A DNA stretch of 64,000 nucleotides. Source: Amoebophrya sp. A120. Taxonomy: Eukaryota > Protista > Dinoflagellata. The stretch spans positions 3,222,437 through 3,286,436 of the forward strand of contig CAJINV010000006.1 of the NCBI GenBank assembly GCA_905178155.1, in the 5' to 3' direction. Below, one piece after another: positions 12,050 through 54,299 of this stretch (position 1 is its first letter; each line of letters starts with the position of its first letter). The notes beneath the pieces are model-generated. The model did no database searches. It saw only the letters and a program-made list of their open reading frames with translations, and was not told where the DNA came from. A program made the translations under genes and the position numbers.

Positions 12050-13470
12050 GGAGGAAATTGCTGCAGCTGAGTCGTCGAAATGAAGTCAGTTAGAGTTTTT
12101 TACGAGGGACAATTTCAGGTTTTCACGTCGAGCAGAAGTAGCTATTACTCAATTTATTACTTTTGTAAAATCGAAATCCTGTATCCCAGGTTGGTTTTAT
12201 CGAAGGCCCGAAATCATTATTGAAACAAAGAAACAACACACAAAAAGAACCCTGTTATGCAGCTTTATCAATTTGATGCACAGTCAAAACCTCGAGAACT
12301 CCGTTTACGTTTTCATCCCCAGTTGTCTATAACCTTCCATACATATCGCTAAGAATTTGCTCTTCGCAGCACGACACGCCACAACTGACGGAGCCCCATT
12401 GAAGATTCAATGGAGGGTATCCCAATATCGAGCTCTTTCTACTAATATCCTTTCCCTATCTACATTTTGAAGACCCAATAAAGAAGCTCTTTCCACTGTG
12501 TATTCGACCTTTATTTTGTAGTTTTTCACGTTTTTTTTTACTTTCTTTCAGATGATTCAAACGCCCCAGTGCCAGTTTTCACAAATTACAGAAACCCTAG
12601 TTGCAAACGCAAGTTATTGTTGTCGCCCCACGACAGAATGTAGTTCCTTTCAGCGCTGAAGCCCAGTTAGCAGGAATAAATTTTCGAAAAATTGCACTAA
12701 GTGTGACTCACTTCCATCCGCAACACGCGACCGATATGAATTTCCATGTGAAAATCCGGCGGCGGAGGGTGCCAGGTGTGCGGACCAGCTCTGGGATTAG
12801 GGCTTGCTGGTGTAGGTGCTTTAAGTATGTCTACACGTCGGTCTTCAAGTAACGACACCAAGCTGAGAGCTAGCAGTAGATTGTGATTGAGAGCGAGCAA
12901 GAGAGCGGAAATCACATTCTGAGCGAAGAGAGATGCTCGAGCAATTGTACATAGATGTAGCTCAGGAAAAAAACGAGTATACAAGGTTTCCTTTTCCAAA
13001 ATTGAAAATTAGTGATGCATGAGACACAAAGAATGCCAATGGTGACGTCCGCCCGAATAAACCTGCATTTCTGTGGTTGCTGGAAATCCGTGGACTCCTC
13101 TTACCGTCGACGTCACGACACCGCTTGCGTGTGGTGCGCTAGCTTGTTTTGCAGCTTAGCAGAGCCACGACGGTGAAGTGGAGCGTGGTCCGAAGATGCA
13201 ATGTCGTGACGATGCTTGTAAAAAGTGGCTCCTCGTCTGATCAGTGCCCCACGGCCGCTGCACGAGAACGTGCACCTTCGAAGAAGTTGCTGCAGTGCCA
13301 GCTGCATCCTTCGCGGAAGAAGAAAATGGGGATCATGATCTCGGGTTTCAGAAGAAGGACTTCTACTTTTGGGCACCTCCACAGGTTGTAAAAATCTAGG
13401 ACAACCAACGGCTGGGCGTTGTAATCCTAAGCTAATCTACGAGGACAATCAACAGCTCTTCGCTTCAGTC

Positions 13471-16400
13471 ATGAGCGGCGCAGAATCTACGTCGCGGCCT
13501 GGGTCACCGGAAAATTTTCCCGGTGGTACCACGACAAATTCCACCACCGAAGTCATCGACGTGGCCGCCTTGGAAGATGAGCAAGATGCTGCACAGCCCG
13601 TCGTGCCAGACGAAGAAGCGGAGGATGATAAAGACCAACAGCGCCAAACCGTCGAGCAGGTCCTTCGGAAGTGGGAAAACGACGTGAAAAAGTACGAGTC
13701 CCGGTTTCAAGCTCTGGATATGCATAAAAAAAACTGCGTAAGTGTATACTCTGTAAATGCAGAACATGCAACAGAGCCACACCTGTCATGCCAGACAACC
13801 ATGAGGTCCTTTTGGCAACATGTGTGTTTTCCGCCCATACAAGCCAGTACGCATGACAGGTTTAATACTCAGTCATGTAGAGCAAATTTGTGATGCTGTC
13901 AGCCAAAGATGATAGTTACACTAGCACAGTTTTTTTCTCGCATACTGGAGGAACGGCGATCGGTAGAACGCAAGAAAAACGAAGAGCAGAAACAGCGGAT
14001 TCTCGAACTAGAACGGTTCATTGCGGAAAATTCGAACACTGCAAATGGAGATGCGGACAAAGTAGATGGCACGACACCAGCAGGAGGGGAGGAGAGAGCA
14101 AATGATTTCAAATTTGTTCCTCCCCCGCGCCGAAAAGCCGGAGAAAGGAGGCAATCGCAGCCGGCAGGTACATCTAGGATCTCAACCACTTTGCCTTCAA
14201 GTGGTGCTGGTGCAGCAGATGCTGACACAGCAACTACACTGAATTTCGAAGACGAGGAGGGCCGGCGCGCCGACCGGGAGAGCATGATTGGGATGATAGG
14301 GCCCCCTGCTGCGGCTGCGAATACTAGTGCCACCTCGTCCAGTAGAGCAGCGTCGAAAGAGAGTCAAGCTCAAGTAGTCGAATCCTCAAATAAAGACGAG
14401 AATGAAAAGAAAGCTGCTGGAGCGAACAAAATAGTAGAAGAAGACCAAGACCACGCTGCTTCGAAAGACAAAGAGATGAAAGATCAGCAGTTATTAATAT
14501 GGAAAAACGAACTCCTCCTCGATGAGAAGGACAAACAGCTGAAACAAACCGCGACTGAATTGGACAAAGTGAAGCAAGACCTCGCCAAAGCGAAACAGTC
14601 CAGCGAGAGTCTTCAAGAGAAACTCGACAATTTACAGACCTCCCACCAGCAGCAAATCAAGACCATCCACGAAACAAAACGACGAGAGTTCGACGAACGG
14701 CTGAAAAGAGTGGAGAAGAAAGTCTGCGCAGAGTTTGAAGCGAAGTTGGTGCTGCACGAAGAAAAGGAGAAATCGCTGGAGAACACTTTGAAAGCGAAAC
14801 AAGTGGAATTCGCGACAGTAGAGGAAGAATTGACACTGTATCAGCAAAAACAGCACCCGTCACAAGTTATCAAATGCAAATATGTCTGGGTCTGGAAGGG
14901 TTCGAATTTGTGATGCGAATCCTACATCGTGACAAAATCTGTCATGCAGGGCCAGCAAAAGGCCTCCCCGGCTCTTGTTACAGAAAGATGTGATAATTTG
15001 TCGTGCGGATTAGGCATTGGGATAGCTGCTCGAATAAATCTGTGATGCTAGGGCTTGCATGCCAGACGATCTGGGTCAGGCAAAAACTGCATGACAAGTG
15101 GTCTCGCAGCCTTCCAGACCCAGACATGTTTGCAGTCGATACAAGTCCAGGACGTGCAAGACTTTCAGTCGAAAATTTCCAACGCGACTCTGCACTTGGA
15201 ATCAGAAATCGAAGAATTGAAGAAGGAGAAATCAAGTCGGGATGAGAAGGAGCATATGCATTCTCGAAATTAAAGTGTCGCACTCTACTAGTATAAATCG
15301 CATGACAAGTTTGCTCCGCATGACACATGGAATTTGTAATGGAAATGGTGTTTTAGCTTACTTAGGAAGAAGATTTGTCATGCAAGTCTGCAACTACCAT
15401 CAGAGTACGACACTTTTGTCGAGTGCATAGAGCAGAAGGTTCTGTACGAATACCGGATGAAAATCATCGAATTAGAACAGGAAATATGCATTGCAAATAT
15501 GTCTGGGTCTGGAACAACTTGTGATGCTAACTTTGGAATCTGAAGAAATCTGTATTGCATGACCAGCAAGAGCGAGGACCACTCCAGTTTATGCTACTTA
15601 CGCGGGGAGGGCATTTGTCATGCGGAATAGGCATCGGGAAGCCTATTAAAAATTTGTGGTGCTAGGACATACATCACAGACGCTCATGGGTCATGCAGAA
15701 CATGCATGACAAACCTTGCGCTCGTGTCCAGACCCAGACACATTTGCAGTTGATAGGAAAACGCGAGGATAAATCACCTCGCGGAAGAGAATATCGTCCT
15801 GTGCAAAACAAGTATCGTACTAGTATAAAGCGCACGACAAATTTCCTCAGCATGAGAAACGAAAGATGTAACGCGGATTCGCCTTGACCTTGACCTTGAG
15901 ACGAAGATTTGTAATGCGTGACTGCGATTAGTACGAGGGCAATACAAGTTTTGCAATGCATAGCGAAGCAGTTTTTAGAAGAAGATTTGCGGAAAGAAGT
16001 GGAAGAACTCGCTTTGGAACTGGAAACGAAAAAGCAAAACGAGAAGGAACTGTTTTCCAAAACGGCGTATTTCGCGATCGACGAGAAGATCAAAGATTAC
16101 AAGAAGCAGATGGAGCTAGACAAAGAGGAGTTTGAGAAAAAACTCGCCGATGAGAACAGCGTATGGAACTGTCAGGATTGAAATTGACAAAGTTGAAAAA
16201 TTTGTGATGCGTAAAACCGATACCAGTTGGAAGCCCAAGTTCTAAGCTGCACATGACAAATCTCGACCTCATCTAAATCCAGTCTGTCATGCTGATTAGT
16301 GCAAGAAGGTATCCTTTGTCATGCTATTTCAGCAGCTCTATCCCAAACCCGAAACAGGCTTACAGTTACAATCGGCCTCACTTGCAACCCCTGCAAGACA

Positions 16401-19400
16401 GTCACTTCGTGCCTTGCATTTTATGCATCACAGATTATTTCAACTTTGTCGATTTCAACCCTGACAGACCCATACAGCGCGAAGAATTCTTTGTTGGAAC
16501 TGAAATGCAGCGAGTTGCAGCTCCAGAACGATAAATTACTATGTGAGAAGGAGATACTAACCGGGGAGGTGATGAACTTGCGGCTGTTGGTCGACGCAGA
16601 TTATCCTGTGCAACAGTATCGTACTCGTAGTAATCGCAGGGATGCATTACAAACCTACATCCCAAGGTGAAACAGCATAAGAAATTCAATTTCTCATGCT
16701 GAGCAAATTTGTAATGCGATTACTGCTAGTGCAATAGAATAGGATACTTTGCAATGCATACAAATCCAGGCAACGACAGTCCGATCCTGATGATCGGCTC
16801 CACTTCCGATCTTGACACGGCTGGTGGAGTGCCGCTTTTTCGGAGGTCGGTGGCAGAACTATTGCGAGGAAAAATCCCCCCTCCCCATATCGATAAGGCA
16901 CGCCTCAGAAAATTTGTCATGCTGATTTGTGACCACAAATCGCATCTGTGATGCAAGAAAGCAATGCCACAGGCTCCGCCCCATTATGCAGGTGGTTCGT
17001 AATGCTATTGGGCCTACGGCATGGACGTTCCCCATGCTAGGCGCCTAGGCCAAAACCTCTCGACTCCGGCACGATATAGGCCTGCAGTCCTTTACTGCAA
17101 GACAAAGGCTATTTGTGGCCACAAATTAGCATTACAAATTTCGTTTTTGATATGGGGAGGGGGGATTTTTGCTCATGATGAGAAACGGTCGACTCAGCCA
17201 TGAGTCCGGCGGGGAGTGATCGGTTTCTAGGTGGAGCAGAGGGGAACAACAAAACGCCGATTCATTTTCATGATCCAGGGGCAGCACGAATGACAGCCAC
17301 AGGAGCCCCAATGACCACAGGTTCGAAACTTGTTGACCTTGCAGGAGGCGTAGGTGCGGCTAGTAGCGATGACGAGGAGTTGATCGTTGACGAATCCACT
17401 GCCACTTCTGCCGGGGGTGGCGGACCTACACCGCAGAGCTTAGGAGCAACCACTACCGGAGCGGCAGCAGCTGATACAGTAGAACAGAACTACGCAGCAG
17501 AAGGACGAGAAACAAAAGACCGCGTCAAGGACCACGACGAGGATCATGATCTTCCCAGTACGATGAAGAACAATCTCTCAAAATCTTCCAAAGCGCCGTC
17601 CTCCCTCGACCGCAGCATCGCCGAATTAGGGTTGCAGGATTCGCCACTTGCTTCGCCAGAAGATGAAAGTTTGGAAAAAGCAAAAGGAAAAAGTGACCAC
17701 CAGGGTGCGTCCTCCTCGAGCGGGGCAAGTACTAGCAGTCCGAGTGGACCACGAGCGAAGGGACTGCTTCCACCCGATGAAAAGGAAAACGACTCGTCAA
17801 ATAAGTCAATAAAAAATGACAACGCAGCTTCTACGTGGTCAAGAACACCACCGCAGACGGTAACCGGAGGTCCACCAGATCCAGACAACGGGACAGGTGC
17901 ACCAGCAGGAGGAGCTTCTTCTATCGCAAAAACCCCTCTATTGGTGATTAACGACGAGCTGGATGCGTTGTTGAGCGGAAAAACCAACAACCTCTTGCAG
18001 CAAAACCCTCACTATCCTGTGCAAAAGTATCGTACTCGTATTGCATAATCATGCATTACAAATCTTTTTGTTGAGGTAGATCAGCATTAGAAATTTTATT
18101 TGTCATGCTGAGGAAATTTGTAATGCAGCATTGATACGAGTGCGATACATGTGCAAGTCATACCTACTCCCCGAACGCGGTGCTGATGCGGGAAGAGGAA
18201 GACGGAATTTCCCCGGCCAAGGAGCAAGACGGAAAAATAACTGCACAGGACCGAGATCAGTCGCATAACTCCAAGAACAGCAGCAAGAATAATTCATCCG
18301 GTAATGATGTCAGAACTAGAACAAGCAACAGCAAGTCGAAGTTGAAAGCATTGCGCGATCAGAGCAAATTCGCGTTTGAAGAGATGATGAAGCGGATGAC
18401 GGAGGTGATATGGCGTAGTTCTCAAGCGTTACATTCTCAGCTGCTGCATGGAGGTTTGTCATGCAAGATTACAATCAGAATCGGCACGATCAAGCTGCTT
18501 CGCATGACAAACTGCCGAGAGGCCAACCAGGCGGAAAATCTGTGCCAAATCTGTCATGCAACACGCACAAGGTCATCCCCCTCACTTTTATTGCCATTCA
18601 TTCTTGCGTCACAAATTCGTGTAACAGTTGAGAGCGTAACAGTTGAGAACGCCATAAGTGAGAGCGGAATCTGATCGGAAAGTTAAGGAAGCGCAGGACA
18701 AGTTGGAAGTGCAAACGAAAAGCTTGATGGGAAAGGTATGGAAGAATTATTTAAAATTTTTTGCTCTCACTTTATCAAAGTCGTTTCTATGCTGTGACTT
18801 TTTGGAAGTGGGTATTAACGAAATTGGCGAAAATTTCAATTTTGTTTTTATTCTCGAGAGTGTGCTGATTTTTACTTTCATTATCACGGGGATGCGTACC
18901 GTCCACCTTTTGCAGCCATCACGCAAAGATGCAATAATTGGTCACTTTTGTCAATGTTTCGGGTTGATTAAGATTTTATTGTTTGTGATTTGAAGTGTTT
19001 ATGAATGTTCATGAACGAGTGCAAAATTACAAGTTTCTAATACATAGTACTACAGCGAGTTGCTATCAAAAAAACAATTTTCTAATCGCAGGTGTCGCAC
19101 CTCGAGGAGCAGCGTGACGTGCTCCAAGTCCGGAACCAAACCGTGGAAGAAGAATTGAAGCAAATGATTATTTGAAGAAAAATCTGCCCTCCTCATATCG
19201 AAAAGGAAATTTGTGATGCTGATTTTTGGCCGCAGATCAGCTTTGTGTTGCGTACAAGGCAGACGGCACCCATGTGGCGCATTGTAGAGCTAGTCTGTCG
19301 CGCGTTTTCATCCCATATGTCGGACTAGTTTCTCATGCTCAGCGGCTATCCGGATGCGTAGTATCCAAAAGGGCTTAGAACAAAACGCCGACAAGCTCTT

Positions 19401-22400
19401 GCTGCAATACAAAGTTCATTTGTGTACACAAATCCAGCAACACAAATTGTCTTCTGAACATCATGGGGTGGGGGCTTTTTTCACTTTGATAATGATCGCG
19501 ACCAACACGACAAATTCGATCGAGTTGAAGAACCTCCAAAACCTCTTCAACGCCCAAAAACAAGAGGCGGACGAGTACAGGAGAAAGGCTGGGATAATGT
19601 CGTTAACCGCAACGTTGACAGCGTGTTCCTACCCGATTTGCCACAACGATACCATCAAACAAACCACCTTCCAAGAACTCCGGATTCAGTTGCTACAGAA
19701 AAAAATCGCTTCACTTCAAAACAAGAAACAGAGGGAAGAGGAGGATGACCAGAAGCAGGCGTTATTGTTCAAAGCCTGCAAAGCAGAGCTGAAGCAACTG
19801 GGATACGACATTTCTGGGAAATTACCCCTGGTGTTGTTGGACGAGGACGATGGTAGCAGCACGACAGCTTCCAGCCCGACAAACGCAAGCGGCTTGATGT
19901 CTGGCCAGACATTGTTCCCAGACGAGGAACCAGCAAGCGCTTCTAACGAAACTGTACGAACTGCAAAAGCATCGTACTAGTATAAATTGCAATACAAATG
20001 CAAATCAGCTCAGCATTACAAATTAAATTTGTAATGCGGATTTGCCTTAAGAAAGTCAAAGATTTGCAATGCATAAAAGCAATTAGTACGCGTACGATAC
20101 TTTTGCACAGGATAGACTGAAGACGAAGCTGACAAAGTCGGTGACGCGTCCAGATATCGACTGGACGACACGGGACTGGAGGCGGTCGAGGAAATGCTAA
20201 AATTTGACCAGATGGGAATAAATAGTAGAAGTGTCTTCATCTCTACTCTTGCGGACCCACCACCTCCTTCTCCCTCTGCACAACTAATGGACGATGACGA
20301 CACTGAAAAGGGCTTGAATTCTACTTCCAGCCCACGAGGAATAGATCATGCGTCCTCGTCTTCACAGCAAGTATCAAAGCCTTCCTTCCTCGACACCGTG
20401 CTCAAACTCGGCACCGACACCGCTGGGGATTGCAACTTTATCGCAACCGAGATTGCAGTATCAAATGTAAAAATGTCTGGGTCTGGAAACTTGTGATGCT
20501 AGGCGGCATATCATGAGGAAGCCACAGGTGCTGGCTCAGCATGAGAAGTTTCTGAGCTTCTCGGTGTTGCGTATTCTACATGACAAACTGCGTTTCTGCA
20601 TGACAGAAAAGTGGCGCTCTTGGGTAACGTGCATGACAGATTTGAGAGTCATGCCAGACACGCATGACAAACATGGACGCTTCCAGACGCAGACATTTTT
20701 ACATTTGATATGCAGAAACCCTATCCGCCATGAAAATCGGCGTGAGTGAGATTCCGACCATTCTCTTCCCTCTAGAGTACAAACGCTCGAATATCCTGTG
20801 TAAAAAAGTCCCCACCCCAGAGTTGTCATGCAGATTTGCGATTACAGGAAGATTTGTAATGCGCATCTCCATGACGAGAGCGACGCAGTTCCAATTGCGT
20901 TTTGGAATTTTGTAATGCTGTAAACAGGATAAGCAGATGGATTTGTGATGCGGTTGTCCTTGCTAACATGCACTACACCAAGGACGGACTGCAACTTGTC
21001 ATGCCTGGCTCCCAAAACTTCTGGATTTGTGTTGCTAAGTTTCCAACTTGACTATGGGTCGGGGACGTTTTTACATATGATATCGAAAAAGTTCCGGCTG
21101 TTTCAGAAAGGCATGTTGAAATCCGTCCTCTACTTGGAAAAATCCTCTTCGTTTTTGCTCGATTTAACGGTGTATGGATTGCAAATATGTCTGGGTCTGG
21201 AAGAATGAGCAACTTGTCATGCTCGGCGAGCATGATCCTCAAGCCTGTCATGTTGCACGTCACCCAAAAATAGCCTCATTTTTCTCTCATGCAAATAAAG
21301 TGCAGTTTCTCATGCAGAATACACAACACCAAGCACCTCAGAAACTTGTCATGCTAGAGCGCCAATTGGAATTGTGGCGTCCTCAAGATTCGCCAACCAG
21401 CATCACAAGTTTCCAGAGTCTGACATATTTGCAAGGCATACGGTGCGGATCGCGCGGTGCTTGGAGGAATATGACTTGCCCAAACGTTACAATCTCAACC
21501 GTTACAATAGAATCTGGACGAATTTGTGTTGCATGATGAGCATGACAGGCTCACACAGCGATCCACCTTTTGCAATACAAATTTCGTCAGAGTGTCGTGG
21601 GGTTTAGGGCTCCGGAACTTGTCATGCGCAATCCTATGAGACTTGGCTAGATCATGCCGTCTTGCATCACAGATTTCTATATTCTATTGTAACGTTTGAG
21701 ATTGTAACACCTGAGCGGGCTATAAGGAATCGGGGAAGTTTCTCGGGTTGCAGAAACTGTGCAGATTCGTGGAGGACTACTGCTACCGGTCCGTTTTTAC
21801 GTTCGGGAAAAGGGAAAGATCACGGTTTTCCGAATTCGCGAAGGAAGAATTTGCGCGGAAATACGAGGTATCAAATGCAAAAATGTCTGGATCTGGAAAC
21901 TTGTGTTGCTGATACTTGCATTGCAAACTTGCTGCTTGTACAGCATAACAGCATGAGAAATTGTTTCCCTCGGCATTCCTTGCGGATTCATTTTTCGTGT
22001 TTAGCATTACAAACTGCGCCATCCAGCATGACAAAAAACCTGGCCAATGGTATTCATGCATTACAGATCTTGTTGTCCTTGAAGTCCTGCATCACAAATC
22101 CAGACATATTTGCAATGCATACGAGGACGCACTCCAGTTGGCGGATGAGGAAGGGAACAACGCGTATGAGCTGAAGAAAAAGGTAAAGGAGCTGGTACCC
22201 TGTGTAAAAACGACGTCACCACGAGGACCCCATAGTCAAGTTGGAAAATCTGCAACATAAATCTGTGTACCGCTACCGCCCTTCTGTTTAGCATGACAAC
22301 TCTGGGGTCCTCGTGGGGACGTTTTTTCTTAGGATAGCTGGAGGAAAAGATTCAAGAGATGGCGCGCAAGGAAGTGGAACAACAGAAAAATCTTTCATCT

Positions 22401-25400
22401 GCAGTTTCAGCATCTTCAATGCCAGGGCCTACTTCGTCGCAACAAGATTTAGCCAGCACGAACCTCCCAAACACTTCGACAACGCCAGCAGGACCAGGTC
22501 CGCCGCGAAGTAGTAAAGGTGCTGGCGGTGGTCCTGGGAAAAATAAGGGCTCGACAACAACTCCGAAGCCATTCATGAGTTTGAAAGAGTTGCATGAGAA
22601 ACTGAACTATGAACTGCAAAAGTATCGTACTCGTATAAATGCATATACAAATTTCCTCAGCGTGAGAAATAAAATTTGTGATGCGGATTTACCATAAGCA
22701 AAAGACTCGTATAATGCATGATTGCAATACGAGTGCGATGCTTATGCTTTTGCGCTGGATATGAACCAAGTCGAAGCGGAGGCGGTGCAGGAAGCGAATT
22801 CGCCACAGTATTGTGAGGCAAACTCCCCCCTCCCCATATCAAAACGAAGCTTCTGATGCTGGATTTGCGTACAGAAATCCGATCTCTCTTGCAGAAACTG
22901 CTTCGCGGCATTTTCTGAGCCTGTTTCGGTATGCAGAAGGCTAGCAATTGCGCATGGCAAACAGGTTCGCAGTAGTCGAAAGCGCATGTCAGACTTGCTC
23001 TGGAGTGCGTCAAACGGCTCTTCTGGCCCTATACGCTTGACGAAGATGATTTGTGACCACACATCAGCAACACAAATTTCCGTTTTGATATGGGGAGGGG
23101 GGATTTTTCATTTTGATACACAGAAAGTTGAGCTGATAGGAGAAGGACAACTAGTATATCTGGAACAAGCAAATTCTGAGGCAACAGCCTCTACATCTGC
23201 ACTGCAAGACTCATCTGCACAACTGCAAGGTCCATCTGCACAACTGCAAGATCCATCTTCTGCAACAGCTCCGGTGAACACGAAAGGAGCGAAAGCAACA
23301 GTGGTCGTTCCAGGGATCAAAGGGAAAGGAAAGAAAGCCGCACCACCGCCGGTGCCTGGGTCTGTAGCGCCAGTTGCGACTTTTTCAGGTACCAAGGGGA
23401 ACGGAGATGATGATGTCGTTTCTGCTAATAGCAGCACGACAAGTGGCGCACCACCTGGCAAAGGGGGCAAGGCCGCTCTATGGCGTTCTCAAACGTTACA
23501 TTCTCAGCTGTTGCATGGATTTGTCATGCAAATTTGCTATCACCCTCCACACAATCAGGCTACTTAGCATGACAAACTCGCTGCAGTACGCTTAACAACA
23601 GGTACATCCGTTCCAAATTTGTAATGCCAAGCGTGCAAAAATCTTTCCGCTTGGACATTTACTATTCTTGCAACACAAATTTATGTAACGGTTGAGAATT
23701 ATATAACATTTGAGAAGGCCATACCCTCCTCCGCCAGTGCCAGGATCATCGTCGGGGCAAGCCGCATATGGATTGCAAATATGTCTGGGTCTGGAACGTT
23801 GCAACTTGTGATGCTGTGTTTGGATTCCAAAAAAAAATTGTATTGCATTACCAGCAACAGGTGTCCAGTTCTTGCTACGTGGAGGGGGCATTTCTCATGC
23901 GGAATAGGCATCAGGAATCCCTGCTCTAAAAGTCTGTGATGCAAGGTCGTGCATTACAGGCATTCTGGGTCATGCAAAATATGCATGACAAACCTGGCAA
24001 TCTTCCAGACCCAGACACTTTTACATTTGATACCGCAGTACCACCTGCACCTAAAGGAGCAGCACCGCCGGCGCCAGTTCTGGCAAAAGGGGCTCCTCCT
24101 CCGGTACCTGGCGGGAAAGTAGGCGGTGCGCTGCCAATACCTGGGGGGAAAGGAGCAGCACCCCCACCAATACCTGCAGGGACGAACAAAGGCGGAGCAG
24201 CACCCCCACCTCCCGCTCCCGGCAAAGGCGCAGCACCACCCGCAAAAGGCGGCGCTGGTGCGCCACCTCCTGCAAAAGGCGCCGCTGCACCACCAGGGAA
24301 AGGCGCAGCTGCACCACCCGGCGGTCTGAAAGGCGCCGCTGCACCGGGGAAAGGAGGAGTTAAAGCCGCCGCCGTATGGGCGGGTACTCAAACGTTACGT
24401 TGTTTGCTGTAATGCGTGACTTGTCAGGCAAAATTTAAATACCATCAGCATCCACACGACCAAGCTGCTAGTTCGCATGACAAATTCTTGAAGGCGGGCT
24501 AAAAAGAAAAACATCATGGCAAAAAAATATGCGCCGAAATTGTAAATGGAAGAGCTGCTCTAGTAGGTTTTCTCCCACCTTTTGCTTTTGCTATTCATTC
24601 TTGCGTGACAAATCCATGTAGCCAGGAACTGACAGGGTAACGCTTGAGAACCACTTCATACGCCGGTGGGAAAGGCAAGGGAAAGAATCAGCCGCAAATC
24701 GACATTCCGCTGCATGACGTCCCAGAACCACCGAAGGAGCACGTCGCGAAGGCCTTGCACTGGCAGAAACTAATCCCGAAGCAGTACGAGAACAGTATTT
24801 TCGCGAGGTTAACTTTACTGAAAGAGAACAAGAAGCCCCCGCCGCCAGGGGGGGATCAACTTCTACATCATCCGGAGGATATCATACAACCAGCAGGAAG
24901 AACACCCAGTAGCCCCTCCTCTGGGCCTATCGTGAAAAATAAAACCGCCGTCGCTGGTACTCCTCTCCCAAGCAGCAGCGCTCTTGCGTCCCCGCCACCC
25001 AGTTCGCAAAAACTGATGCTGAAGAGCAGTCACAATTTGACTACCGCTGCAGGAGGTGCTACCGCTTCGTCTTCTACGCGCCCCAACACGAATTTCGCGA
25101 AGGTTTTACAGAATCTTGGGAAAAACTGCCGCTTGCAGAAGATCCAACAACACTTCTTCCAAAAGCCAGTCGCGAAAACAACTGCCGGCGGCGGGAATAA
25201 AGACGGTGCTCCTGGTGGTGGTGGAGCTGCAGGTGGTAAAAAGGAAAAGAAGCTCACAACGTTATTAGAAGACGGCGGGAAGGCGCAAAACATTGAAATT
25301 GCGTTGAAATCAAGGAGTATCACCGCGGAACAGGTGCGGAAACGGCTATGCATTTGAAAAGCATCTTCGTGCGTAGGAGTAATTCTAATTGCATCACAGA

Positions 25401-28400
25401 TTCGGAGGTCGTAAAAAGGGATGAGAAGATAAAAATGCGTCATGCAGTATGATCAGGTAAGAAGGAAAAATCTGTCGTGCATGATTGCGATTAATACTAC
25501 GAGTCTACGATCATACTTTTCCAGTGGATAAAGGCTCGACGACTACGATTTGAAATCCATGAACTTCGAGTCTCTGCAAATCGTGATCAGCATGTACCCC
25601 ACCACAGAGGAGATTCAGCAGTTGAGGAGATACGACGAGCTACTCGCAGCGCAGGAGAAAGACGATCCGAACAACCCGCTGCCCCCCCTCCGCGGCGCGG
25701 AAGACTTTCTGATGGGAATTCTCAAGATCCAGCATTTCAAGCAGAAAACGGACTGCGTTTCCTACGTGGAGCTGTTTCCGAAGTCGTTTGAAGAAACGGA
25801 GAAGGAAGCAGGTTTGTTGGAAAGCTGCTCGGTGAAGATATTGAATTCGCAGGCACTGCAGGTGGTTTTCTTTCTCATTATGCAGATCGGGAATTTTTTG
25901 AACTACGGAACGGCCAAAGGGTCCGCTTTCGGCTTCTCGCTGGACACATTAGACAAATTCGGGCAAATATCCAAGGAAAAAACTGTGCAGGTGTAATTTT
26001 CTACTTAGAGGAATAGCATCACAAGTTTGATGCTCTGCATGACACAGAAAGCCTGTCATGCGTATCCAGTACCTGAAAACAGAACACGAAGGAAAGAGCC
26101 TCTGATGCAAATCCAGCATGACAAGTATAGCAGTTTTACACTTTCTGCATCACAGACTTACACTCACATAGCTTTTTTCTTGCATAGCAAACGGCCAGCT
26201 TTTCCGCGAAGGACTACACGCTAGCGCACGCGCTCTGTGTATCAAATGCAAATATGTCTGGGAGGTCTGGAATAGTGTGATGCTGTTTGTGCATGACACA
26301 GAAGGTCTAGCATGCAAGTCCTAGCAACACAGGTTTTGTGCAGGTTAGGCGATGCCTATATCCGCATGACAAGTTCCCTCCTTTGGTGGCAATAAGTGAG
26401 CAACTTTTAGTGCAGTCCATGCATGACAGATTTTTTTTCTGGTCTCAAATGTGCATCAGAAGTTTACACGTTTCCAGACCCAGACACTTTTGCATTTGAT
26501 ATTGTGAGGAACTGTGGAATGAGAGTAGGGATTCGCTGAAGCAGTTTTTAGAGGATTTGAAGGAGTGCGAAGTTGCCGGGAGAGTGGATTTCGCGGACTG
26601 TAAAAAGAGGGCGAAGGATTTAGAACAGCATATCCCACAGAAAAAAGCAGGCAGGGCAGATTTGTAATGCAAAAAAAAAGACACAAAAAAATCTATCATG
26701 GGCGGCCCCCTAGCATGCTGCTTCGAATATGGAATGCGGATTTTCTTGTGTATCTATTTTTGCATTACACCCTGCCTGCTTTTTTCTGTGTAATACAGCA
26801 GGTGGAATACGTGCGGAAAACGGTCGGCGTGAAGGTAAAAATCTGTATTGAATGCTACTTATGTGATTTTTTGCGATTGCGCATGATGCGCACGACAAAC
26901 TAGAAGATGGTTTTGGAGCCCAATTGATGCGAACGCGCACGCCAACCTAGACGACGTCTCTAGTACGTTCTTTCCAACTTCGATTTGTATTTCTGCAGCA
27001 AAACAGAAACATCCATGTCGATAATATCAGCTTCCGGACGAAGACGCAGCTGACGGCAGTACTACAGTTGCAGAAGGGAAACCAACCAGCACAACAGCGA
27101 CTATCACCCCGCTTTTCTACCCTGAGTAAAATAACCATCCCCACACCAGAGGCAAGATGGGAATTTTGCAACACAAACCTAGAACTTTTGGGGGTCACGC
27201 ATCACAAGTTGCAGTCCGTAGTGTAGTGCAGGTTCGCAAGGCCAGCTGCATCAGAAATCCATCGGCTCATCCTATTTACAGCATGACATACAAGAAAGTA
27301 CAAAAAACGACTAGGAACGTCTCTCCTGGCGATGCGCATTACAAATGTTTCTGTCATTGCAAACTGCATGACAACTATGGTGCGGGGACGTTTTTACTCA
27401 GGATATCTTCGGCTCCGCCTTCACAAAGGGGATGGAGGAATTTGTCATCAACGAAAAGAAAAGGGTATATGCATGGCAAATATGTCTGGGTCTGCAAATT
27501 TGTAATGCTAAAAATGTAATGCTAATATTGATATTCGCACTGCAATGCGCAGCCAAGCATGACAAATTTTTGGGCTGCTAGGTGTTGCGTATTCCGCATG
27601 ACAAACGTGAGTTCTTTCATGACAGGCAAGACGTCCTTTTCGTGCTCACGCATCACAGATTTGAGATGAGTCATGCCCGACAAGCATGACAATTTTGCAT
27701 TCATTCTTCTAGACCCAGACATATTTGCACTTGACAGGGTAACGAATTTGACCAAAAAGATCGAGAAGTTAGAAAAAAAGCAAACGGAGTTAGTTTCCTT
27801 TCTCGCAGCGCGAAATGGGACCGCATTACAGGACTGTTTTTCCTTATCCAAGGGAAAAAGATTGCCGGTGTAACTTGAACTGTTTTATTGGCGGAGCAGC
27901 ACTTTTACAAATCTGTCTGGCAGATAGTTGTACGGGGAAAGGAATAAGAAAGCAAAAACATAAACATGTTTGGATCGTAGACCTTGCAGTACAACATGAC
28001 CAGCATAACAGACGCAAAAATCGTTCTGCGTGGTGCCTGTTATCAGAAAGCTTTTATACTTGCAATTTTTTTTTGGCGGATTTTGCACCCTCGCGAAGTT
28101 CCGAAAGTTGATAGAGCAGTCCATGCGGCAGAATCAAGAATATCGTGAGGAAAAATATCCCTTCCCACTATCGAAAAGGAAATTTGCGATGCTGCATTTG
28201 CGTACACAAATCGGGTTGTATTGCTAGAAGAGCAAGGGACGCACTTGTGGCCTTGTTTGCAGGCAATTTGTCATGGTGTTTCCCACTTCCAGTCGCCCCC
28301 TGTCATGCTGAAGACGCAAGGCTTTCCCACGACGCCAGCCAGCACTACAGTCCGCCGCTTTTGCCTTCTAGCATGACAACACGACTTGTGGCCACGAATC

Positions 28401-29748
28401 ATCGACGCAAATTTCCAGTTTCTTGAGTAATTTGGGGAGGGGGGATTTATCCTTTTGATAAAGAAAGAATTTTGAAGGAAAGGAAACGGCAACAGATATC
28501 CTGAGTAAAAACGTCCCCACACCAGAGTTGTAATGCAGATTTGCAAAGACGGGAAGACTTGTAATGCGCATCCCCATGAGAGCCGTTTCCAATCGTGTTT
28601 TGGAATTTGTGATGCTGTGAACAGGATGAGCAGATGAATCTGTGATGCGGCTGCACTTGCTAACCTGCACGACACTGCAGAGCGCAACTTGTCATGCGTG
28701 ACTCACAAAACTCCTAGGCTTGTGTTGCAAAATCCCCATCCTGACTCTGGTGTGGGTACGTTTTTACTCAGGATAACAGAGAGAGGAGGATGCGAGGAAG
28801 CTATCCACAAAAAGAAAACTACACCCATCCCCATCCAATTTGTCGTATGGAAGTCATGCATTCAATCCAGTGTAGTTCTTTGTCATGCAGAATAAAAATG
28901 GATGGGGATCTTCATGGGTGTGGTTTTTTCCTGGATAGAAGCGGATAGCAGATAAATTGATGTCGGCGGTTGGGAAGGAAAAGGAGAAAGAAAAACAAGC
29001 GGAGACTACAGCACCCGTCGGGCCGAAAACTGTGGAAGAATTTTGCAATGTGGAGGGCAAGGCGAAAATATTAAACGGGCAAAACAATGATCCTGCTGGC
29101 ACCACGCCGGAAACAACAGGAGCTGGTGCGGAAAAGGAACAGAAGAAAAAAACAACTAGTACCAGCGGGGGCGCGCTGGATTTATGCGAGTTGAGTTTTG
29201 GCGCTTACCAAGGAGAGCCAGATACTGCTGCTGCTGCTGCTGGGAAGAAGCAACAACAAAAGAAGCCGCCAGATAAACCTGCTAGTTCAACAAGTTCTCC
29301 GGAAGGACCGAAAGCTACAGCGAGCGAGGACCAGGCAGCAGCTGCAACAATTGAAAGTAGTAAATCAGAAGCTGCAAGAACCACCTGCCCTGCAGAAGTG
29401 GGAGCGCAATCCCAATCGGAAGCAGTGAGTAATAATGAAGTAGACCCCGCCTCTACTACTTCTACCTCTCTGGACAAATCAAAATCTGCGCCTGCAGCCC
29501 CGGAAGTTGTAAAACTGAAGCCGACGAACCACCCCCACCCGAAGTCAAGAGAACCGCCAGACGGAGCACCGCCAGAGGATTCCCCCTCCCTAACGAAATC
29601 GCAGATCCGAAAAGCCAGCAGCACCATTGTGGTCGGCGGCGAGCGAAAACGGGTCAGTACGCTGTTGCGAACCAGCAGGACAAGCAACCAGTACAGCTCT
29701 TCTTCGTCGGAGGAGGAGAGGGAGGACGTGTCCTCGCCGGTCACGTAG
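13471..29748 (+). CDS. Formin (N-terminal coiled coils, Pro/Gly/Lys-rich FH1, FH2); 33 introner-type introns plus GT-AG introns 18736..19091 and 26834..27030
   Basis: FH1 poly-Pro (PPPVPGGK, PPPPAPGK); FH2 motifs KALHWQKL, KAQNIEIALK, LQVVFFLIMQIGNFLNYGTAKGSAFGFSLDTLDK, then after splicing GQTASFSAKDYTLAHAL and FTKGMEEF; start codon tentative. Confidence 0.9.
13719..13944. mobile_element. Introner, family E
   Basis: TSD ctgga. Confidence 0.88.
14868..15141. mobile_element. Introner, family A
   Basis: TSD caagt. Confidence 0.92.
15255..15429. mobile_element. Introner, family B
   Basis: TSD gagca. Confidence 0.88.
15485..15755. mobile_element. Introner, family A
   Basis: TSD ggaaa. Confidence 0.92.
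15792..15962. mobile_element. Introner, family B
   Basis: TSD gagaa/gcgaa. Confidence 0.85.
16162..16474. mobile_element. Introner, family D
   Basis: TSD cagcg. Confidence 0.92.
16602..16760. mobile_element. Introner, family B
   Basis: TSD cagat/caaat. Confidence 0.88.
16860..17180. mobile_element. Introner, family F
   Basis: TIR aaaatccccc-tccccatatc; TSD agaac/agaaa. Confidence 0.85.
18013..18162. mobile_element. Introner, family B
   Basis: TSD ctcac/cctac. Confidence 0.85.
18409..18656. mobile_element. Introner, family G
   Basis: TIR tatggcg..ttctcaa..cgttaca; TSD ggtga/agtga. Confidence 0.88.
19169..19491. mobile_element. Introner, family F
   Basis: TSD atgat. Confidence 0.85.
19955..20114. 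mobile_element. Introner, family B
   Basis: TSD aactg/gactg. Confidence 0.85.
20459..20710. mobile_element. Introner, family A
   Basis: Near-perfect TIR; TSD tgcag. Confidence 0.93.
20792..21082. mobile_element. Introner, family C
   Basis: TSD tcgaa. Confidence 0.9.
21173..21440. mobile_element. Introner, family A
   Basis: TSD cggtg. Confidence 0.9.
21470..21724. mobile_element. Introner, family G
   Basis: TSD aggaa. Confidence 0.85.
21869..22121. mobile_element. Introner, family A
   Basis: TSD cgagg. Confidence 0.9.
22196..22336. mobile_element. Introner, internally deleted family C
   Basis: TSD gctgg; 141 bp. Confidence 0.85.
22608..22761. mobile_element. Introner, family B
   Basis: TSD tgaac. 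Confidence 0.9.
22809..23118. mobile_element. Introner, family F
   Basis: TSD cacag. Confidence 0.9.
23479..23723. mobile_element. Introner, family G
   Basis: TSD cgctc/ccctc. Confidence 0.88.
23767..24032. mobile_element. Introner, family A
   Basis: TSD ccgca. Confidence 0.92.
24375..24660. mobile_element. Introner, family G (degenerate)
   Basis: TSD cgccg. Confidence 0.85.
25347..25530. mobile_element. Introner, family B
   Basis: TSD acggc/aaggc. Confidence 0.85.
25968..26186. mobile_element. Introner, family E
   Basis: TSD gcaaa. Confidence 0.88.
26240..26501. mobile_element. Introner, family A
   Basis: TSD ctgtg/ttgtg. Confidence 0.9.
26631..26795. mobile_element. Introner, E-like
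   Basis: TIR cacagaaaaaagcaggcaggg; TSD cagca. Confidence 0.9.
27118..27405. mobile_element. Introner, family C
   Basis: TSD ttttc/tcttc. Confidence 0.88.
27468..27736. mobile_element. Introner, family A
   Basis: TSD gggta. Confidence 0.88.
27845..28082. mobile_element. Introner, degenerate family E
   Basis: TSD ttcct/ttgca; FH2 frame restored. Confidence 0.7.
28141..28460. mobile_element. Introner, family F
   Basis: TSD aagaa. Confidence 0.88.
28497..28775. mobile_element. Introner, family C (young copy)
   Basis: TIR tatcctgagtaaaaacgt.cccacaccagagt; TSD acaga. Confidence 0.95.
28802..28937. mobile_element. Introner, short unique type
   Basis: TSD gaagc; TIR tatcca..aaaac.acacccat. Confidence 0.88.
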
Positions 29749-44700: not shown

Positions 44701-47700
44701 GAAGAACAGAAGCAGGCTGAAGTCTTAAAACAGGAGCAGGTCCGCGTCAGAAACCCACAGCTTATCGTTCAGGAGAACGAAGAACACGACCAAAATCAAC
44801 TCACACAGGAAGAACGCGACCTGTACTACTATCCGCATCAGATCCCGCCGAAACTCTACACAGGACGCAAAGTTCCGCGGTATCTGCTCACTGGTGCAAC
44901 TGCACCCAGTACTACAACTAGAGCTGCTGTTCCCACTTCTCCACGTCGCGGTTCGACGCAGCGTCGTGTAGTTGCTCAACAGCAGTTTTCATCTTCGGAC
45001 GAAGAGGACAATTTTGCCGACGGTGAGGATTCCCCCAGTTCCTACAACGGGGATCAATCGAATTTATGAATGTGCACAACTCCCCCTCCCCCTCATATGT
45101 ATTGCATGAACAGCAATGCAAGCGTCAGGGGTAATCCCCTTTTTGCAAGACAAATTTGAATCACAGGAGTGTGGTGCTATTTGGGCTGCCAGAACTTGTC
45201 ATGCAAACAGTGTCAAGATGAGCCAAGGCGTAAAAAACTAGGCACTTTGCATTACAAATGAGGGGGACGGGGAGTTGTGCACCCTCATAGAATTCCTCTT
45301 GCTTTCACCAGAACCACCCAAGGCACGGAGGCTATTTTGGGCCAGGATCATTTTTCGTCGAGAGTAGCGAACGACCGCTGCTCGTAGGGAAAAGAAAGAA
45401 CCGCAGCTCGGAGGACAACTCATTCGAAGAAGACTCGCAGTATTCCTCGCAACAAGAGAAAGGGCGAGGACCTGCTATCGTTACCAGTGAGGACGCTGAT
45501 AGTGAACAGGAGCCGTTAATCCACCGTGCCGACCGGGTATACGACGACAACAGTGAGGACGCGCTGAGCGACGAATTTATCACCATCTACAAAAAGCCAC
45601 CCCCACCCATCGAGGAGAAGGACATTATCAAGAGCAAGGGCCACTACTTGCGGTATTTGAAAGCCATTAAGCAGAAGAAGCAAGCCCGGAAGCAGCAGAG
45701 AAAGGTCTTGAAGTATCAAATGTAAAAATGTCTGGGTCTGGAATGTTGCAGGGTTTGTCATGGAGATTTTGCATAACCCAGGATGTCTGTAATGCACGAC
45801 CTAGCATCACAGATTTTTAGACGGCTTCCTGATGCCTATTCCGCATAACAAATGCCCTCCCCGCGTAGCACAAACTAGACTCCTCTTGCTGGTCATGCAA
45901 TACAGATTTGTTTAGAGTTCAAAGTTAGCATCACAAGTTCCAACCTTCCAGACCCAGACATTTTTACATTTGATATGAAGGAATCTGGGGCGATCGAGAA
46001 GGACCGGCAGCACGTGGAAGACCTATGCATTGCAAATGTGTCTGGGTCTGGAAGAGTACAAGTTATCATGCTAAATCTGAATCATGCGAAAATCTGTGTT
46101 GCATGATTACCATATAAAGCTGTCCACTTTCCTCGAGCAAGCCGCAAGGCAGTTTCTCATGCAGACAAGGCATGGCACAGATCATCTCACAGAACCTGTG
46201 ATGCCAGGGCATGCATCACAAACCTCATGTGTCATTGCAAACCGTGCATGACAAACGTAATGCACAACTTTTCCAGACCCAAATCGATGTTTGCACTTGA
46301 TAGGACCGACACCAGTACAAGTTAGAAAATTTCGTCCGGGGGTATTTCGACTGGCTGCGAAATATCGACTCGAGTGAGGAAGTAGGCACGGTAAAAGCAT
46401 CTTCGCGCTCGGAGTAATCGTAATTGCATTGTTTTACATGACAAAAGTACTTTCTCTACCTGAATCCGCATGAGAAATTTTATTTTTTCTTCAAAAAAAA
46501 TTGTGATGCCATTTCTACTAAGTGCGACTCTTTTGCCATGCATACCGCGAGGGCTACAAAGAAGAGCAGGAAGAGGAAGTCGGGGCTGTCGTTTCCGCCT
46601 ACGAAACTAGCGAGGAAGACGAGCGCGTCACCCGGCAGAAGGAAAAGGAGTTAGCGGCAAATCCGTTGTTGATCATATCAAATGCAAAAATGTCTGGGTC
46701 TGGAAGAGTGCATGTTTGTCATGCTTGTCTAGCATGACTCTCAAATCTGTCATGCACGTTACCCAAGAGCGCCATTTTTCTGTCATGCAGAAACGCAGTT
46801 TGTCATGCAGAAACTGAGGCAACACCTAGAAGCTCAGAAACTTGTCATGCTGAGCCAGCACTTGTGGCCTCCTCACGATACGCCACCCAGCATCACAAGT
46901 TTCCAGACCCAGACAGTTTTACATTTGATAAATCACCTACGAGGACACTTTGAGTGACAAACCTGTCCCACTAGCGGATTTGTACACCATCGACACAAGG
47001 CCTTTGCGGAGGTGGATTGAAGATCTCCACGAAGACGACTTGTGGGACCACGACATCGATCCGTTGGAGTTGCTGAAGGTCCGGAGACGCCGAGACTACG
47101 ACTTGCAGCTGCGGTTAGCCTTCGTGCAGGCGGAGACTTTTGCGATTTTAGATTTGGAAAACGACCCAAGTGACCGGATTGAACTCGCGATCTTACTCAT
47201 GGCGGGCCAAGTCGTTCCCCTCAACGAGGGGTGGAGCCGGATCCACAAGGAGGGGGTGTTGGTACTGGAAGAATTTCTGCAGGAGGGCACGATCAGACCC
47301 TCGGTGCAGCAGCAGGAGGGAAAGCCAAAGCGGATTTTCAGCAATGCGGACTACACGGAATTGTACACCTTGGTGTACAACATGTGTACGCAGCGGACAC
47401 CGAATAACTGGTAATATACCTAAACCTATGTCTTCTAGGATTTTTGATTTGAATAAGTAGTGCCTTTTTGTTGCGTTTTATCATGACATGAAGTAGTACA
47501 ACTTAGGCCATACATGCTATACTACAAATCTACACTTATCGTCAAAAATTATCAGGCAGCAGCAGTTGTATCAGAAGTACGGTGAGACCATGAATCAGTA
47601 CATCAGCAAGAGTATCAATTTGCAAACATGTTGTCTGGAAGATTGCGAGATTTGTCATGCTATTCTGGCATCATGATCATGCGCATGACCGTGAGCTCTG

Positions 47701-50700
47701 TAATATTGCGTGTCGTCCACTAAGAGGTCCTTTTGTCTGTCCTGCAAAGACGCAGTTTCTCATGCAGAACACGCAAGAAAACTGGGCGGCGGCGAACAAA
47801 TCTGTCATGCTTGGCGGTGCATTACAGTGTGCTTGCTCTTTACTGAATTGCATATATACACCTTTCCAAACCTCCCTCTTCCAGACAGACTTGCTGTGCA
47901 TAAAGAGGGTCATAAACGGCTTGGAAAAGCGAGTAGGGAAAGATTTGCTGCAGGCGCTATTGAAAGCATGGTCCAATCACCAATTGTACGTGAAGTGGAT
48001 GACGCGGTTCTTCACCTATCTAGACAGGTATACTATAGGAGAAAGAAATAAACATAAACTTCTAAGCTTGATGTTGATGTTTGTCATGCAAAACTAAAAG
48101 TAAACACTTCATCTGACATGCAAAAACCGCAACTTATCTATGAGTGCATTTTATCAATGACTCAGGTACTACGTGAAGCTGCAAGCAGTCCCTTCGCTTA
48201 CCGCCCGGGGTTACGCTATCTTTAACCAGTCCATCTTTCAAGCCGTATCGGGGGATACCCGGGAAGCGCTTTTGCAGGCGATTCGGTCCGACAGGGACGG
48301 GGAAGCAAACTTTTCCGACGGGGACATCGTGAAGGGGGTGGTTTCGATTTTCATCGAATTAGGGGCCTGTGTGGCCAGTGGACGAGATGCGGAGGTATAT
48401 AGTTTTTAGAGCATAGTACAACGACAACTATATAAATCAAGTTTGATATTTCACGAAGCCAAAGAACTTCAGTTCGCAGATTTGGTGTGGAAGTAGAACA
48501 CAAACTCCATCCTTGATGCCTGATTTTCCAACACAAATTATCTACGAACCTCATTAATATCAGCTCGTCGCCGGCGCTACGGGCACGATGCAGGGAACCT
48601 TCCCCTCGAACCACCCACAGCACGGATTGCAGATCTACGTGCAGGAATTTGAAAGCCACTTCCTGCCCGACAGCAAGGATTACTATGCGCGGCAAGCCGC
48701 CGGCTGGCTGGAAACCAATTCGTTTTCGGAGTACTTGCTCCAGGCGGACCAGTGCCTGTTGAAAGAAGCGGAGCGGGTATGCGAGGAAAAAACTGTTTCG
48801 CTGTAAACTTGTAATGCAGGAAATGTATCCCACATGTGTTTGTCTTGCTACACAGCCATGCAACACAGTGGATTTTTAGCTGTACTTTCCCTTAGGACCC
48901 TTGCATGGCAAATTTTCTCTGTCATGTAGAACATCAAACCTGTGATGCAAAACTTGCAAAATCCTTACCGTGAAACACTTTTTTCGTACGATAACGGGTG
49001 AAGATGTACCTGCACAGAACCACGGACCAGAAGCTGAAGCTGGTATAGTTTAAAAAAGATGCTTAGTGCTCTGAGCATTACAAATTACCTCAGCATGACA
49101 AATGGAATTTGTCATGCTGTTTTACCTTGGGATGGAGATTTGTAATGCATAAATGCAATCGCTACTTGTCCTACCCTATCAGGTCCTCCTCGAAGCGCTG
49201 CTGAACGAAGACACGCGGAAGATCCTTATGGATTGCAAAACTGTCTGGGTCTGGAAGATTGCAATTTGTCATGCTAAATCTGAATCATGCTAAGAAGCTG
49301 TCTTGCGTGATTACCGACAGCCGTTCTTTTTTACCAAGTTGAGAGGCAATTTATTTCTCATGCAGGATAGGCATGATAGAGATCTCACAGAGTTTGTCAT
49401 GCTAGGTGCTGCATTCTAAACCTTATGAGCCGTAGAAAACCTGCATGACAAACCTTGCATCCTTCCAGACCCAGACATATTTGCATTTGATAATCCTGTT
49501 AGACAAGCAAAACTCGATGGAATTCCTGCTCGAAAATGACAAACGGGAAGACTTGTCTCGCGCGCACAAACTTTTCGGCTATGTGGAGGGGGGCTTGCAA
49601 CCGTTAGCGGCCATCTTCAAGACACACATCATCTCCAAGGGGAATGCCATTGTCGATGACAGGTATTTTTATAGAAATAGACTGTGATGTGGATATTATT
49701 TGCATGACAAAAAGAAAAATAAAGCGACACTGTCGATGAAGTTAGTAAGGGCGTGCTGTAGTTTTTGTTTGGTTGCATAGCATGAGAAGCATGTACATAC
49801 CTTTTTCTCTTTCATTTTCTGCATTTTTACGAATTGCCACTTTTGTACTTCCTGGCCGGCACGATGCTCAGGTTAAAGGCCGTCGAGGAGGATCCGAATT
49901 TGAAGAAGTCCGACGGTCTCAACGACCCGCAATTCATCCAGAAAATGCTGGACCTGCACGACCATTACCGAGCGGTGGTTGTCGCGAGTTTCTCCTCCGA
50001 TTCGCTCTTCCAAAAGTCCTATCAAATGCAAATATGTCTTGGTCTGGAAGAATGCAAGGTTTGTCATGCTTGTCTGGCATGACTGAGGACCTTGTGATGC
50101 GTGTCCAAGACGAGAGCCTTTTGCCTGTCATGCAAAAACGCAGTTTGTCATGGGGAGAGCGCAACACTAAGTAGCGCAGATATTTCTCATGCAGCTTGGC
50201 TGTGCATTACAGAGCATTCACTATTCTCAACCGAGCATTACAAGTTTCCAGACCCAGACATTTTTGCATTTGATAAGTCCCTGAAGGAAGCTTTCGAGCA
50301 GTTCCTGAACCGGGATTTAGGGAAGCACAGCTGCGCAGCGTTAATGTCCCACTTCTGCAACCGGATTTTGAAGAAGGGTATCAAACGCAAATATGTCTGG
50401 GTCTGGAACAAAGCAACTTGTCATGCTAAATCTGAATCATGTAAAAATCTGTGTTGCATGATTACAAAAAGCTTTTCACTTTTGGCCTAATCGAGAGGCA
50501 GTTTCTCGTGCAGGATAGGCATGATAGAACTCTCACAGATGAATCTGTCATGCTATGTCCTACATACCAGACCTCGTGGGTCATTGGAGAACCTGCATCA
50601 CAAATCTGGCATTCTTCCAGACCCAGACATATTTGCATTTGAAGAAGGGCGGCACGCCGGAGCGGCTTTCGGATGAGGAGGTGAACATCATGATTGACAA

Positions 50701-53509: not shown

Positions 53510-54299
53510 GAATCATGGTGCAGCGTCGGTGAGGAACAACTTCAGGTAGGAGATTTTACTGTCACGTCAGCGATTCGGAATCGGGTGAAGAGTGGATGAA
53601 ATTTTGAGGTGGGAGGTGAGGAGAGGTGATTTTATTTCGGATGGAGTGGCTTGAGGTTTACGCGTCTCCTCATCCTCTTGAAGATGTTTACCCTTTTTCT
53701 TTACACCAGCGTCGTTCTTGCATAGAGCAAGCAGGATGAACTTCTGTAACTCTACATAATCAACTTTCAAGCGAGACGACGTTGCTGTGTCTTCTTTTGA
53801 TCTACTCTATGTAGTTCCTCCTGTAGCGGAAAACTCTTACACGCAAGTATTGATTCTAATCTGGCACCGTTGAAAAGCTTTTGGTAATAAAAACGAACTT
53901 TGAGTTGCTAGAGCTAGAGGTAGAACTACTACAAAACAAGAACCCATTCAGTATCAGTACTTTTTTAACGAGGACACGACGCCAGTACGAAAGCAGCTCG
54001 ACTGCTAGTAGTGCAGTAGCTGTGTCGACGAAAAGACCCCATGAGTTTGTCGAGAAGTAGTATCATCTGGAATGCTCGATGAGGACTCGTTCTCAATTTG
54101 ACGAACTTTTTTACACGACTGGCGACATCAATTTTTTTTTGAAATGAACAAGAGGCAGCTCCTCGTACAGCTCGCAGGAAACGGCGTTGGCTGAGCTGTG
54201 CAATTAGTACTATCACCTTGTTCGTCTTTGTCATTCTTTTGGATGCTTTTCGGTTTCGTTTTCATGGTCGGCGATCGTTTTCGTTGTTGCTCGCAGCAG

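Follow-up and report, generated by a model that had tools for sequence, protein, structure and literature searches.

A conserved, phased DNA motif within the introner families of Amoebophrya sp. A120 as candidate binding sites of a shared mobilising protein

The 64-kb window analysed here, from the dinoflagellate Amoebophrya sp. A120 (contig CAJINV010000006.1, positions 3,222,437 to 3,286,436), carries 84 intron-like elements bounded by terminal inverted repeats (TIRs), and one internal motif recurs through them irrespective of TIR family. The elements are probably the introners already known from this organism, and the internal code that they carry is real, functionally constrained and probably undescribed. 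The reading favoured here, with a probability of roughly 0.6, is that the motif copies are binding sites of one shared protein mobilising all of the families, as the sequence patterns and the analogy with known transposons would suggest.

Results

The octamer TGTNATGC was counted on both strands of the window, and 100 dinucleotide shuffles served as the null. It occurs as 251 exact matches, against 9.32 +/- 3.0 expected and a shuffle maximum of 18, and 234 of these lie within the 84 TIR elements (19,968 bp, 11.7 per kb). These comprise 83 elements hand-curated from scripted candidates, 79 of which hold at least one exact octamer, and one element added later (50379-50644). The remaining 42,327 bp, consisting of exons and intergenic DNA, hold nine matches (0.21 per kb), and the nine GT-AG introns hold eight in about 1.7 kb (4.7 per kb). 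Two statements of an earlier note, made from the sequence alone, are thus borne out: the octamer studs the elements whatever their TIR family, and it is rare in exons and intergenic DNA. In the comparison of introners, canonical introns and exons that the note had proposed, the elements do stand far above exons, but some GT-AG introns are enriched as well. Within 14868-16760, a hand count gives 17 octamers (4+3+3+1+4+2), every one inside the six elements there, which belong to three groups; the five exons that separate them have none. Short, deleted copies also keep some of the motif, as had been claimed, since the elements at 22196 and 28802 each retain one octamer. Scans of viral contigs returned 4 and 4 loci, none of them with element ends, and these were taken as chance occurrences. 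The motif is absent from a GC-rich stretch at 54000-56400 (up to 68%), which contains three open reading frames (ORFs) without a Pfam match.

Extension of the octamer by weight matrix yields a full motif of about 13 bp, AAAYYTGTVWTGC, of which TGTNTTGC and TCTCATGC are frequent variants. The N of the octamer is C, A or G, with T found in only 4 of 251 matches in the window and 31 of 1771 at other loci. The octamer described earlier is therefore real, but the motif is longer and nearly excludes T at N. A similar refinement applies to the spacing, which the note had put at roughly 20-40 nt: 60 of 154 consecutive gaps do fall at 20-39 nt, but 53 of these lie at 30-39 nt, and same-strand pairs form a sharp peak at 31-33 nt (81 pairs) with none at 25-29 nt. 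As DNA completes a helical turn every 10.5 bp, 31-33 bp corresponds to approximately three turns.

The same geometry is evident in the family consensus maps, where same-strand pairs are separated by 31-33 bp and convergent pairs by 16 or 45-48 bp, and where the first inward site usually lies 32-33 or 40-44 bp from an element end. When each family consensus was counted only once, 13 pairs fell at 31-33 bp, and seven of eight TIR groups contributed to them; the null mean is 1.35, and none of 20,000 shuffles reached 13. A weak inverted half-site often follows 15-16 bp after a site, which suggests a dyad that is repeated in register.

The core of the motif is conserved beyond the rest of the element. 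In all nine groups of the window, core identity exceeds that of the non-motif interior (0.68-0.94 versus 0.49-0.77, leave-one-out, each copy's sites serving as the reference for scoring the remaining copies), and at the internal N identity falls to 0.48. The wider set comprises 447 elements, 69 from the window and 378 from at least 149 loci on metagenome contigs, which may or may not share the strain of the window. Their ends were located by models that were trained on window ends and ignore the target-site duplication (TSD), and the locus scan was anchored on an exact group A end, which over-represents young copies and those of group A. The clustered set of 392 copies consists of 422 with a TSD matching at three or more of five positions, minus 30 that remained unclustered. 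In these 392 copies, deviation from the slot consensus amounts to 2.4% at the first T, 3.8% at the last T, 0.9% at G and 3.2% at C, compared with 28% at N and 24% elsewhere in the interior; the G at motif position 7 deviates in 15 of 1638 instances. Across 194 disjoint pairs, moreover, the difference at core positions stays flat at 4.4-7.9% as that at other positions climbs from 9.7% to 31.7%. Shared ancestry alone does not explain this conservation. Decay of the motif at the rate of its flanks, which the earlier note had named as the mark of mere common ancestry, is not what is found, because the core is conserved while the internal N varies freely; its proposal that the motif persists as the rest diverges holds in nine of nine groups.

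Recognition most likely takes place on double-stranded DNA. In group C, all six sites lie on one strand, the elements are inserted both ways (17:16), and both orientations are removed within one gene, as judged from the length-matched transcript X1 described below. A one-stranded motif in elements removed in either orientation argues for recognition of the double-stranded form. By a k-mer strand model, 366 of 410 full-length copies could be oriented to inferred transcription; the two orientations number 192:174, with core deviations of 2.6% and 2.2% for the two senses. Pairing of motifs in RNA stems was considered and rejected, as there is no covariation: the concordance at N between symmetric opposite-strand sites is at its expectation (0.31 versus 0.33 in subfamily A1, 0.54 versus 0.56 in group B). 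Of the two mechanisms that had been put forward, transposase sites are hence favoured, and strand symmetry together with the lack of covariation disfavours an RNA-binding mark; a removal mark read by the host at the DNA level, which follows from the second mechanism, lost its support after correction for lineage (see Discussion).

The elements begin with TAT, end with ATA and are flanked by 5-bp TSDs. Over 894 ends, the first three positions are T (0.98), A (0.99) and T (0.98), and A at positions 11-13 reaches 0.86-0.93; an AAA after TAT and seven nucleotides fits groups A-E, and groups F, G and H are without it. With ends located independently of the TSD, and among the loci listed, the TSD is perfect in 328 of 447 elements and matches at four or more of five positions in 408, with no preference of base or target across the 447. 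Intron lengths modulo 3 are distributed 153/148/121, so there is no frame bias in overall length. TIRs, a TSD, a short non-coding interior and high copy number are all features of the type shown by MITEs (miniature inverted-repeat transposable elements). Summed contig depth in data set X5, which is not a copy number, rises to about 1e5 over element-bearing bins versus about 30-40 over element-free ones.

Several individual observations on the elements may be recorded here. The A1 element at 50379-50644, in which the terminal ATA reads AAG and 12 nt of the right end agree with the left flank, is removed as element plus 5 nt despite its altered end. Two very similar group C elements lie 67 bp apart in opposite orientation (59965-60251 and 60319-60597), suggesting a local hop. 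Insertions relative to the family consensus, in the window and at L005-L153, tend to have lengths in multiples of three although the DNA is intronic: those of 3 nt number 206 and those of 6 nt 65, compared with 29 for 2 nt and 33 for 4 nt, counts that do not represent independent events. Most of the 6-nt insertions are near-tandem duplications, and deletions show no multiples-of-three pattern; a genome-wide mutational bias is possibly responsible for the threefold lengths.

Removal of the elements from transcripts was assessed in two host genes (Table 1). The formin-like gene becomes a single open frame of 2606 codons once two GT-AG introns and 33 elements, each together with 5 nt, are taken out. 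A contig of RNA type, X1, spans 17181-30231 and falls short of the DNA by 6639 nt, a difference that equals exactly the annotated elements plus the two GT-AG introns (356 and 196 nt); the RNA-type status of the contig runs is an automatic guess. The stretch supported by X1 includes the elements at 22196 and 28802, both group C elements of Table 1 and an element at 22809 with no exact octamer. In four RNA-type contig sets from one sample, 15 of 34 joints are displayed, 10 of them non-GT-AG. These lie outside 14868-16760, where removal rests on restoration of the frame; excision of the first element there (14868..15141) with 5 nt leaves the frame open. Two RNA read sets of 2026, X7 and X8, gave 88 and 1 matching reads, almost all of them partial repeat matches. 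The second gene is presumably cullin-like, judging from its C-terminal sequence.

In RNA-type contigs the elements are excised precisely, leaving one TSD copy behind. Over the 366 elements placed in transcript orientation, the mismatch between TSD copies drops from 7.1% (position 1) to 3.6% (position 5), and when the two copies are unlike, it is the upstream one whose first 1-3 bases survive at the four junction ends examined. The duplicated gene segments at 780-2700 and 7560-8470 carry elements at differing positions and so provide empty-site controls (7600-7782 and 1394-1578); the TSD of the element at 1394-1578 matches at only two of five positions, yet its excision with 5 nt agrees with the paralogue. 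Nearby, 9749-12049 holds an intronless ORF of 766 codons with basic repeats of about 19 residues and no Pfam match.

Motif copies also occur in canonical introns. Five of the nine GT-AG introns have no exact octamer; exact or degenerate copies are seen at 52293-52469, 52756-52931, 26835-27030, 48028-48165 and 49663-49871, some of which have TIR-like starts. These five are probably old introners that have turned canonical. Six of the nine start with GTAT, which could represent a G of the TSD followed by the TAT of an element.

Table 1. Host genes, elements and a motif-bearing intron in the window, with octamer positions and strands
Feature	Coordinates	Strand or orientation	Length	TSD	Octamers	Remarks
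Formin-like host gene, FH2 domain	13339..29748	+				Pfam FH2, E=9e-23
Group A element (subfamily A1)	14868..15141		274 bp	CAAGT	14909+, 14940+ (31 apart), 15041+, 15089-	
Group B-like element	15255..15429		175 bp	GAGCA	15300-, 15318-, 15376+	
Group A1 element	15485..15755		271 bp	GGAAA	15520+, 15616+, 15704-	
Group B element	15792..15962		171 bp	4/5	15910+	Degenerate copies in addition
Group F element	16162..16474		313 bp	CAGCG	16203+, 16285+, 16317+ (32 apart), 16425-	
Group B element	16602..16760	reverse	159 bp	4/5	16644-, 16710+	
Internally deleted element, C-type ends	22196..22336				22291-	
Group C element	27118..27405	- (reverse)				Motif on - strand only
Group C element	28497..28775	+ (forward)			at 32, 63, 111, 144, 193, 224	Motif on + strand only
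Short element	28802..28937				28881+	
Second host gene, presumed cullin-like	47199..53510	+				836 codons open once 18 introns removed; joints shown for 11
GT-AG intron	49043..49182	+			four, perfect	Group B spacing (18, 17, 31); TIRs and TSD eroded; joint shown

Discussion

Together, the abundance, phasing and conservation of the motif raise the question of what reads it. In the reading preferred here, AAAYYTGTVWTGC would be the double-stranded DNA site of a single protein, either a transposase or its DNA-binding partner, that would mobilise all of the non-autonomous TIR introner families. A dimeric or oligomeric protein would sit on one face of the helix, given the spacing of about three turns, and once bound might bring the element ends together for cut-and-paste transposition or copying. 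If new insertions arise solely from copies whose sites are intact, the motif would be kept even as divergence of spacers and TIR interiors splits the elements into families, and each inserted copy would then decay about neutrally. Splicing would depend on the terminal hairpin and the ends rather than on the motif. A precedent for such binding is provided by the Lemi1 proteins, which bind the subterminal repeats of Emigrant MITEs cooperatively (PMC1636448). How tens of thousands of introners of the A120 type move without a detected transposase and are spliced without GT-AG ends or U1 was left open in PMC7789003. One phased motif across differing TIRs makes a shared mobilising machinery likely, rather than many unrelated origins, and it offers both a concrete bait toward the mobilising protein and a TIR-independent signature of decayed introners, including those that are now GT-AG introns.

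A number of observations weigh against this proposal. The sites run through the whole element instead of being confined to subterminal zones. They resemble the TIR tip weakly: seven window ends score as an outward copy at offset 3, which family consensus ends mostly do not. Part of the shared layout may, from the sequence comparison, be an inherited module. In a Pfam scan of 68 ORFs (56 of 60 long locus ORFs and 12 from the window) there was no transposase and no integrase-like match, and neither the window nor the 541 kb of loci yielded an autonomous element. The available parts of PMC7789003 report putative transposases in A25 only, not in A120. The GT-AG intron at 49043-49182, with its perfect sites and eroded ends, is a single case for retention by the host. 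Finally, copies that look older show, before correction for lineage, 1.5-2.4 times the decay at TIR, TSD and other conserved columns, and only 0.8-1.0 times at the core. As to the hunt for an autonomous element itself, it gave 13 and 10 long TIR-bounded candidates, which overlap; the six that were viewed carry inserts unique in the set, and in a further three the two ends belong to distinct elements that paired by chance. Swollen elements with unique inserts of 200-900 bp and intact ends and TSDs are found at L068 5792-6763, L077 6551-7698, L048 3862-4492, L047 571-1051 and L070 8961-9456.

The decay analysis used 459 copies found with motif-masked profiles, less 28 with broken ends and 21 with more than two TSD mismatches, leaving 410 full-length copies, and its age indices (TIR, TSD and conserved-column decay) mix age with lineage. 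On a clock of TSD mismatch only, the ratio for the core is 1.12, compared with 1.63 for the TIR and 1.27 for conserved interior columns; restriction to private changes (375 copies) puts the ratio for the core at 1.02-1.33, its intervals overlapping those of the control classes. The private change rate of the core, 2.4%, equals that of invariant TIR columns (2.4%) and about half the TSD pair mismatch (5.0%), which is expected of neutral decay after insertion, provided that both TSD copies drift; a constrained exon copy of the TSD would mean mild protection of core and TIR alike. Selection thus appears to act on mobility and to be followed by neutral decay, as expected from these rates, and the apparent constraint after insertion faded on lineage correction, but the results conflict. 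Orthologous flanks shared between the window and the loci were not seen among the 40 longest BLAST matches.

It is possible, but doubtful, that the sites instead bind a host protein that recognises double-stranded DNA and marks the segment either for packaging in chromatin or, in place of the missing U1, for co-transcriptional removal; selection on the motif would then operate after insertion. U1 is undetected in A25 or A120 in the available parts of PMC7789003, the G at motif position 7 hardly ever deviates, and, before lineage correction, the core is flat against the age indices (0.87x) as context-matched controls rise about 2.3x; the exact motifs of the GT-AG introns, four of the eight in 49043-49182, would also fit a host role. 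The corrected core ratios given above nevertheless run counter to it, elements with one exact site (22196, 28802) or none (22809) lie in the very stretch that matches X1 in length, and exact copies are missing from five of the nine GT-AG introns. An unlikely combination of the two roles would have a host protein read the phased DNA code, both mobilising the introns, which apparently lack a transposase, and flagging them for a U1-less spliceosome, so that a mark on the DNA, and not splice-site sequence in the RNA, would define the intron.

That motif and spacing are functionless relics of an ancestral ~32-bp tandem array which every family inherited appears distinctly improbable. Interiors of different families do share short BLAST matches (20-60 bp), and the spacers of 31-33 bp pairs are more similar across families than when shuffled (0.36 versus 0.27, partly due to the half-site), yet a core conserved beside a diverging N and diverging flanks is a pattern that neutral decay cannot yield, and a mutational cold spot is countered by the context-matched non-motif sites, which did change. 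It is highly improbable that the motif acts in RNA, whether as a word bound by a protein or by pairing into stems that give the intron its fold. Core bases are indeed paired more frequently than the rest in predicted folds (0.69-0.83 versus 0.56-0.66), but complementary motif copies would give such pairing anyway; group C, one-stranded and removed in both orientations, has only 11% of its core bases paired with another core, and the N concordance and the likeness of sense and antisense sites point the same way.

Comparison with known systems places the elements themselves among the A120 introners, whose inverted repeats start with TAT, seven variable bases and AAA, and which have short direct repeats, non-canonical junctions and many families (PMC7789003, PMC12130899). 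The end pattern, direct repeats (3-5 nt), non-canonical removal and lengths are all shared by the groups of the window, and TIR family lengths are listed as ~150, 208-227, 252-261, 278, 305 and 320 bp (PMC12130899). The match is one of description and length rather than sequence, as the published tables available give lengths and classes; the commonest published repeat is 4 nt (PMC7789003), whereas a flush 5-bp TSD was measured here. In the available parts of the introner literature, including PMC7789003, PMC12130899 and the reviews PMC11282704 and PMC11453091, but excluding figures (such as Figs S19-S25 of Farhat et al.), no description of an internal motif was found, and the two octamer spellings have zero matches in the available text of the Farhat supplement (PMC7789003). 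Those accounts cover the ends, and the internal motif and its phasing are probably new here.

Other systems share individual features. The nonconventional introns of Euglena (PMC12501133) are also non-GT-AG with ends able to pair, but their code, as far as the available text describes it, is a CDG/CH'G signature near the ends, whereas the present motif is strand-symmetric and occurs in multiple copies in the interior. The 5'-N3CDG signature was tried on the elements and rejected: G occupies element position 6 in 5% of ends, the exact cut being ambiguous within the TSD. A 5-bp TSD is likewise found in TDD-4 and TDD-5 of the Ginger2/TDD group (PMC2836005), and integrase-like ORFs are reported by Gozashti et al. 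for one TIR family of A120, family 38 (PMC12130899). Membership in Ginger was rejected, since its termini are given as TGTNR (PMC2836005) and those here are TAT; the elements also differ from it in showing no target preference and no integrase ORF among the scanned window and locus ORFs.

The closest functional parallel is Emigrant/Lemi1, with CACTA, hAT and Sleeping Beauty cited alongside it in the available parts of PMC1636448, where short motifs inside the ends occur in both orientations and are conserved over their surroundings, as here. The present motif shows the features of such subterminal repeats, being conserved over its flanks, present in both orientations and at a fixed distance from the ends. 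Unlike in Emigrant/Lemi1, however, the elements here are spliced introns, the protein and its binding are putative, and one motif is common to at least eight groups whose TIRs differ beyond about nucleotide 15, recurring along the whole element in a strict 31-33 bp phase.

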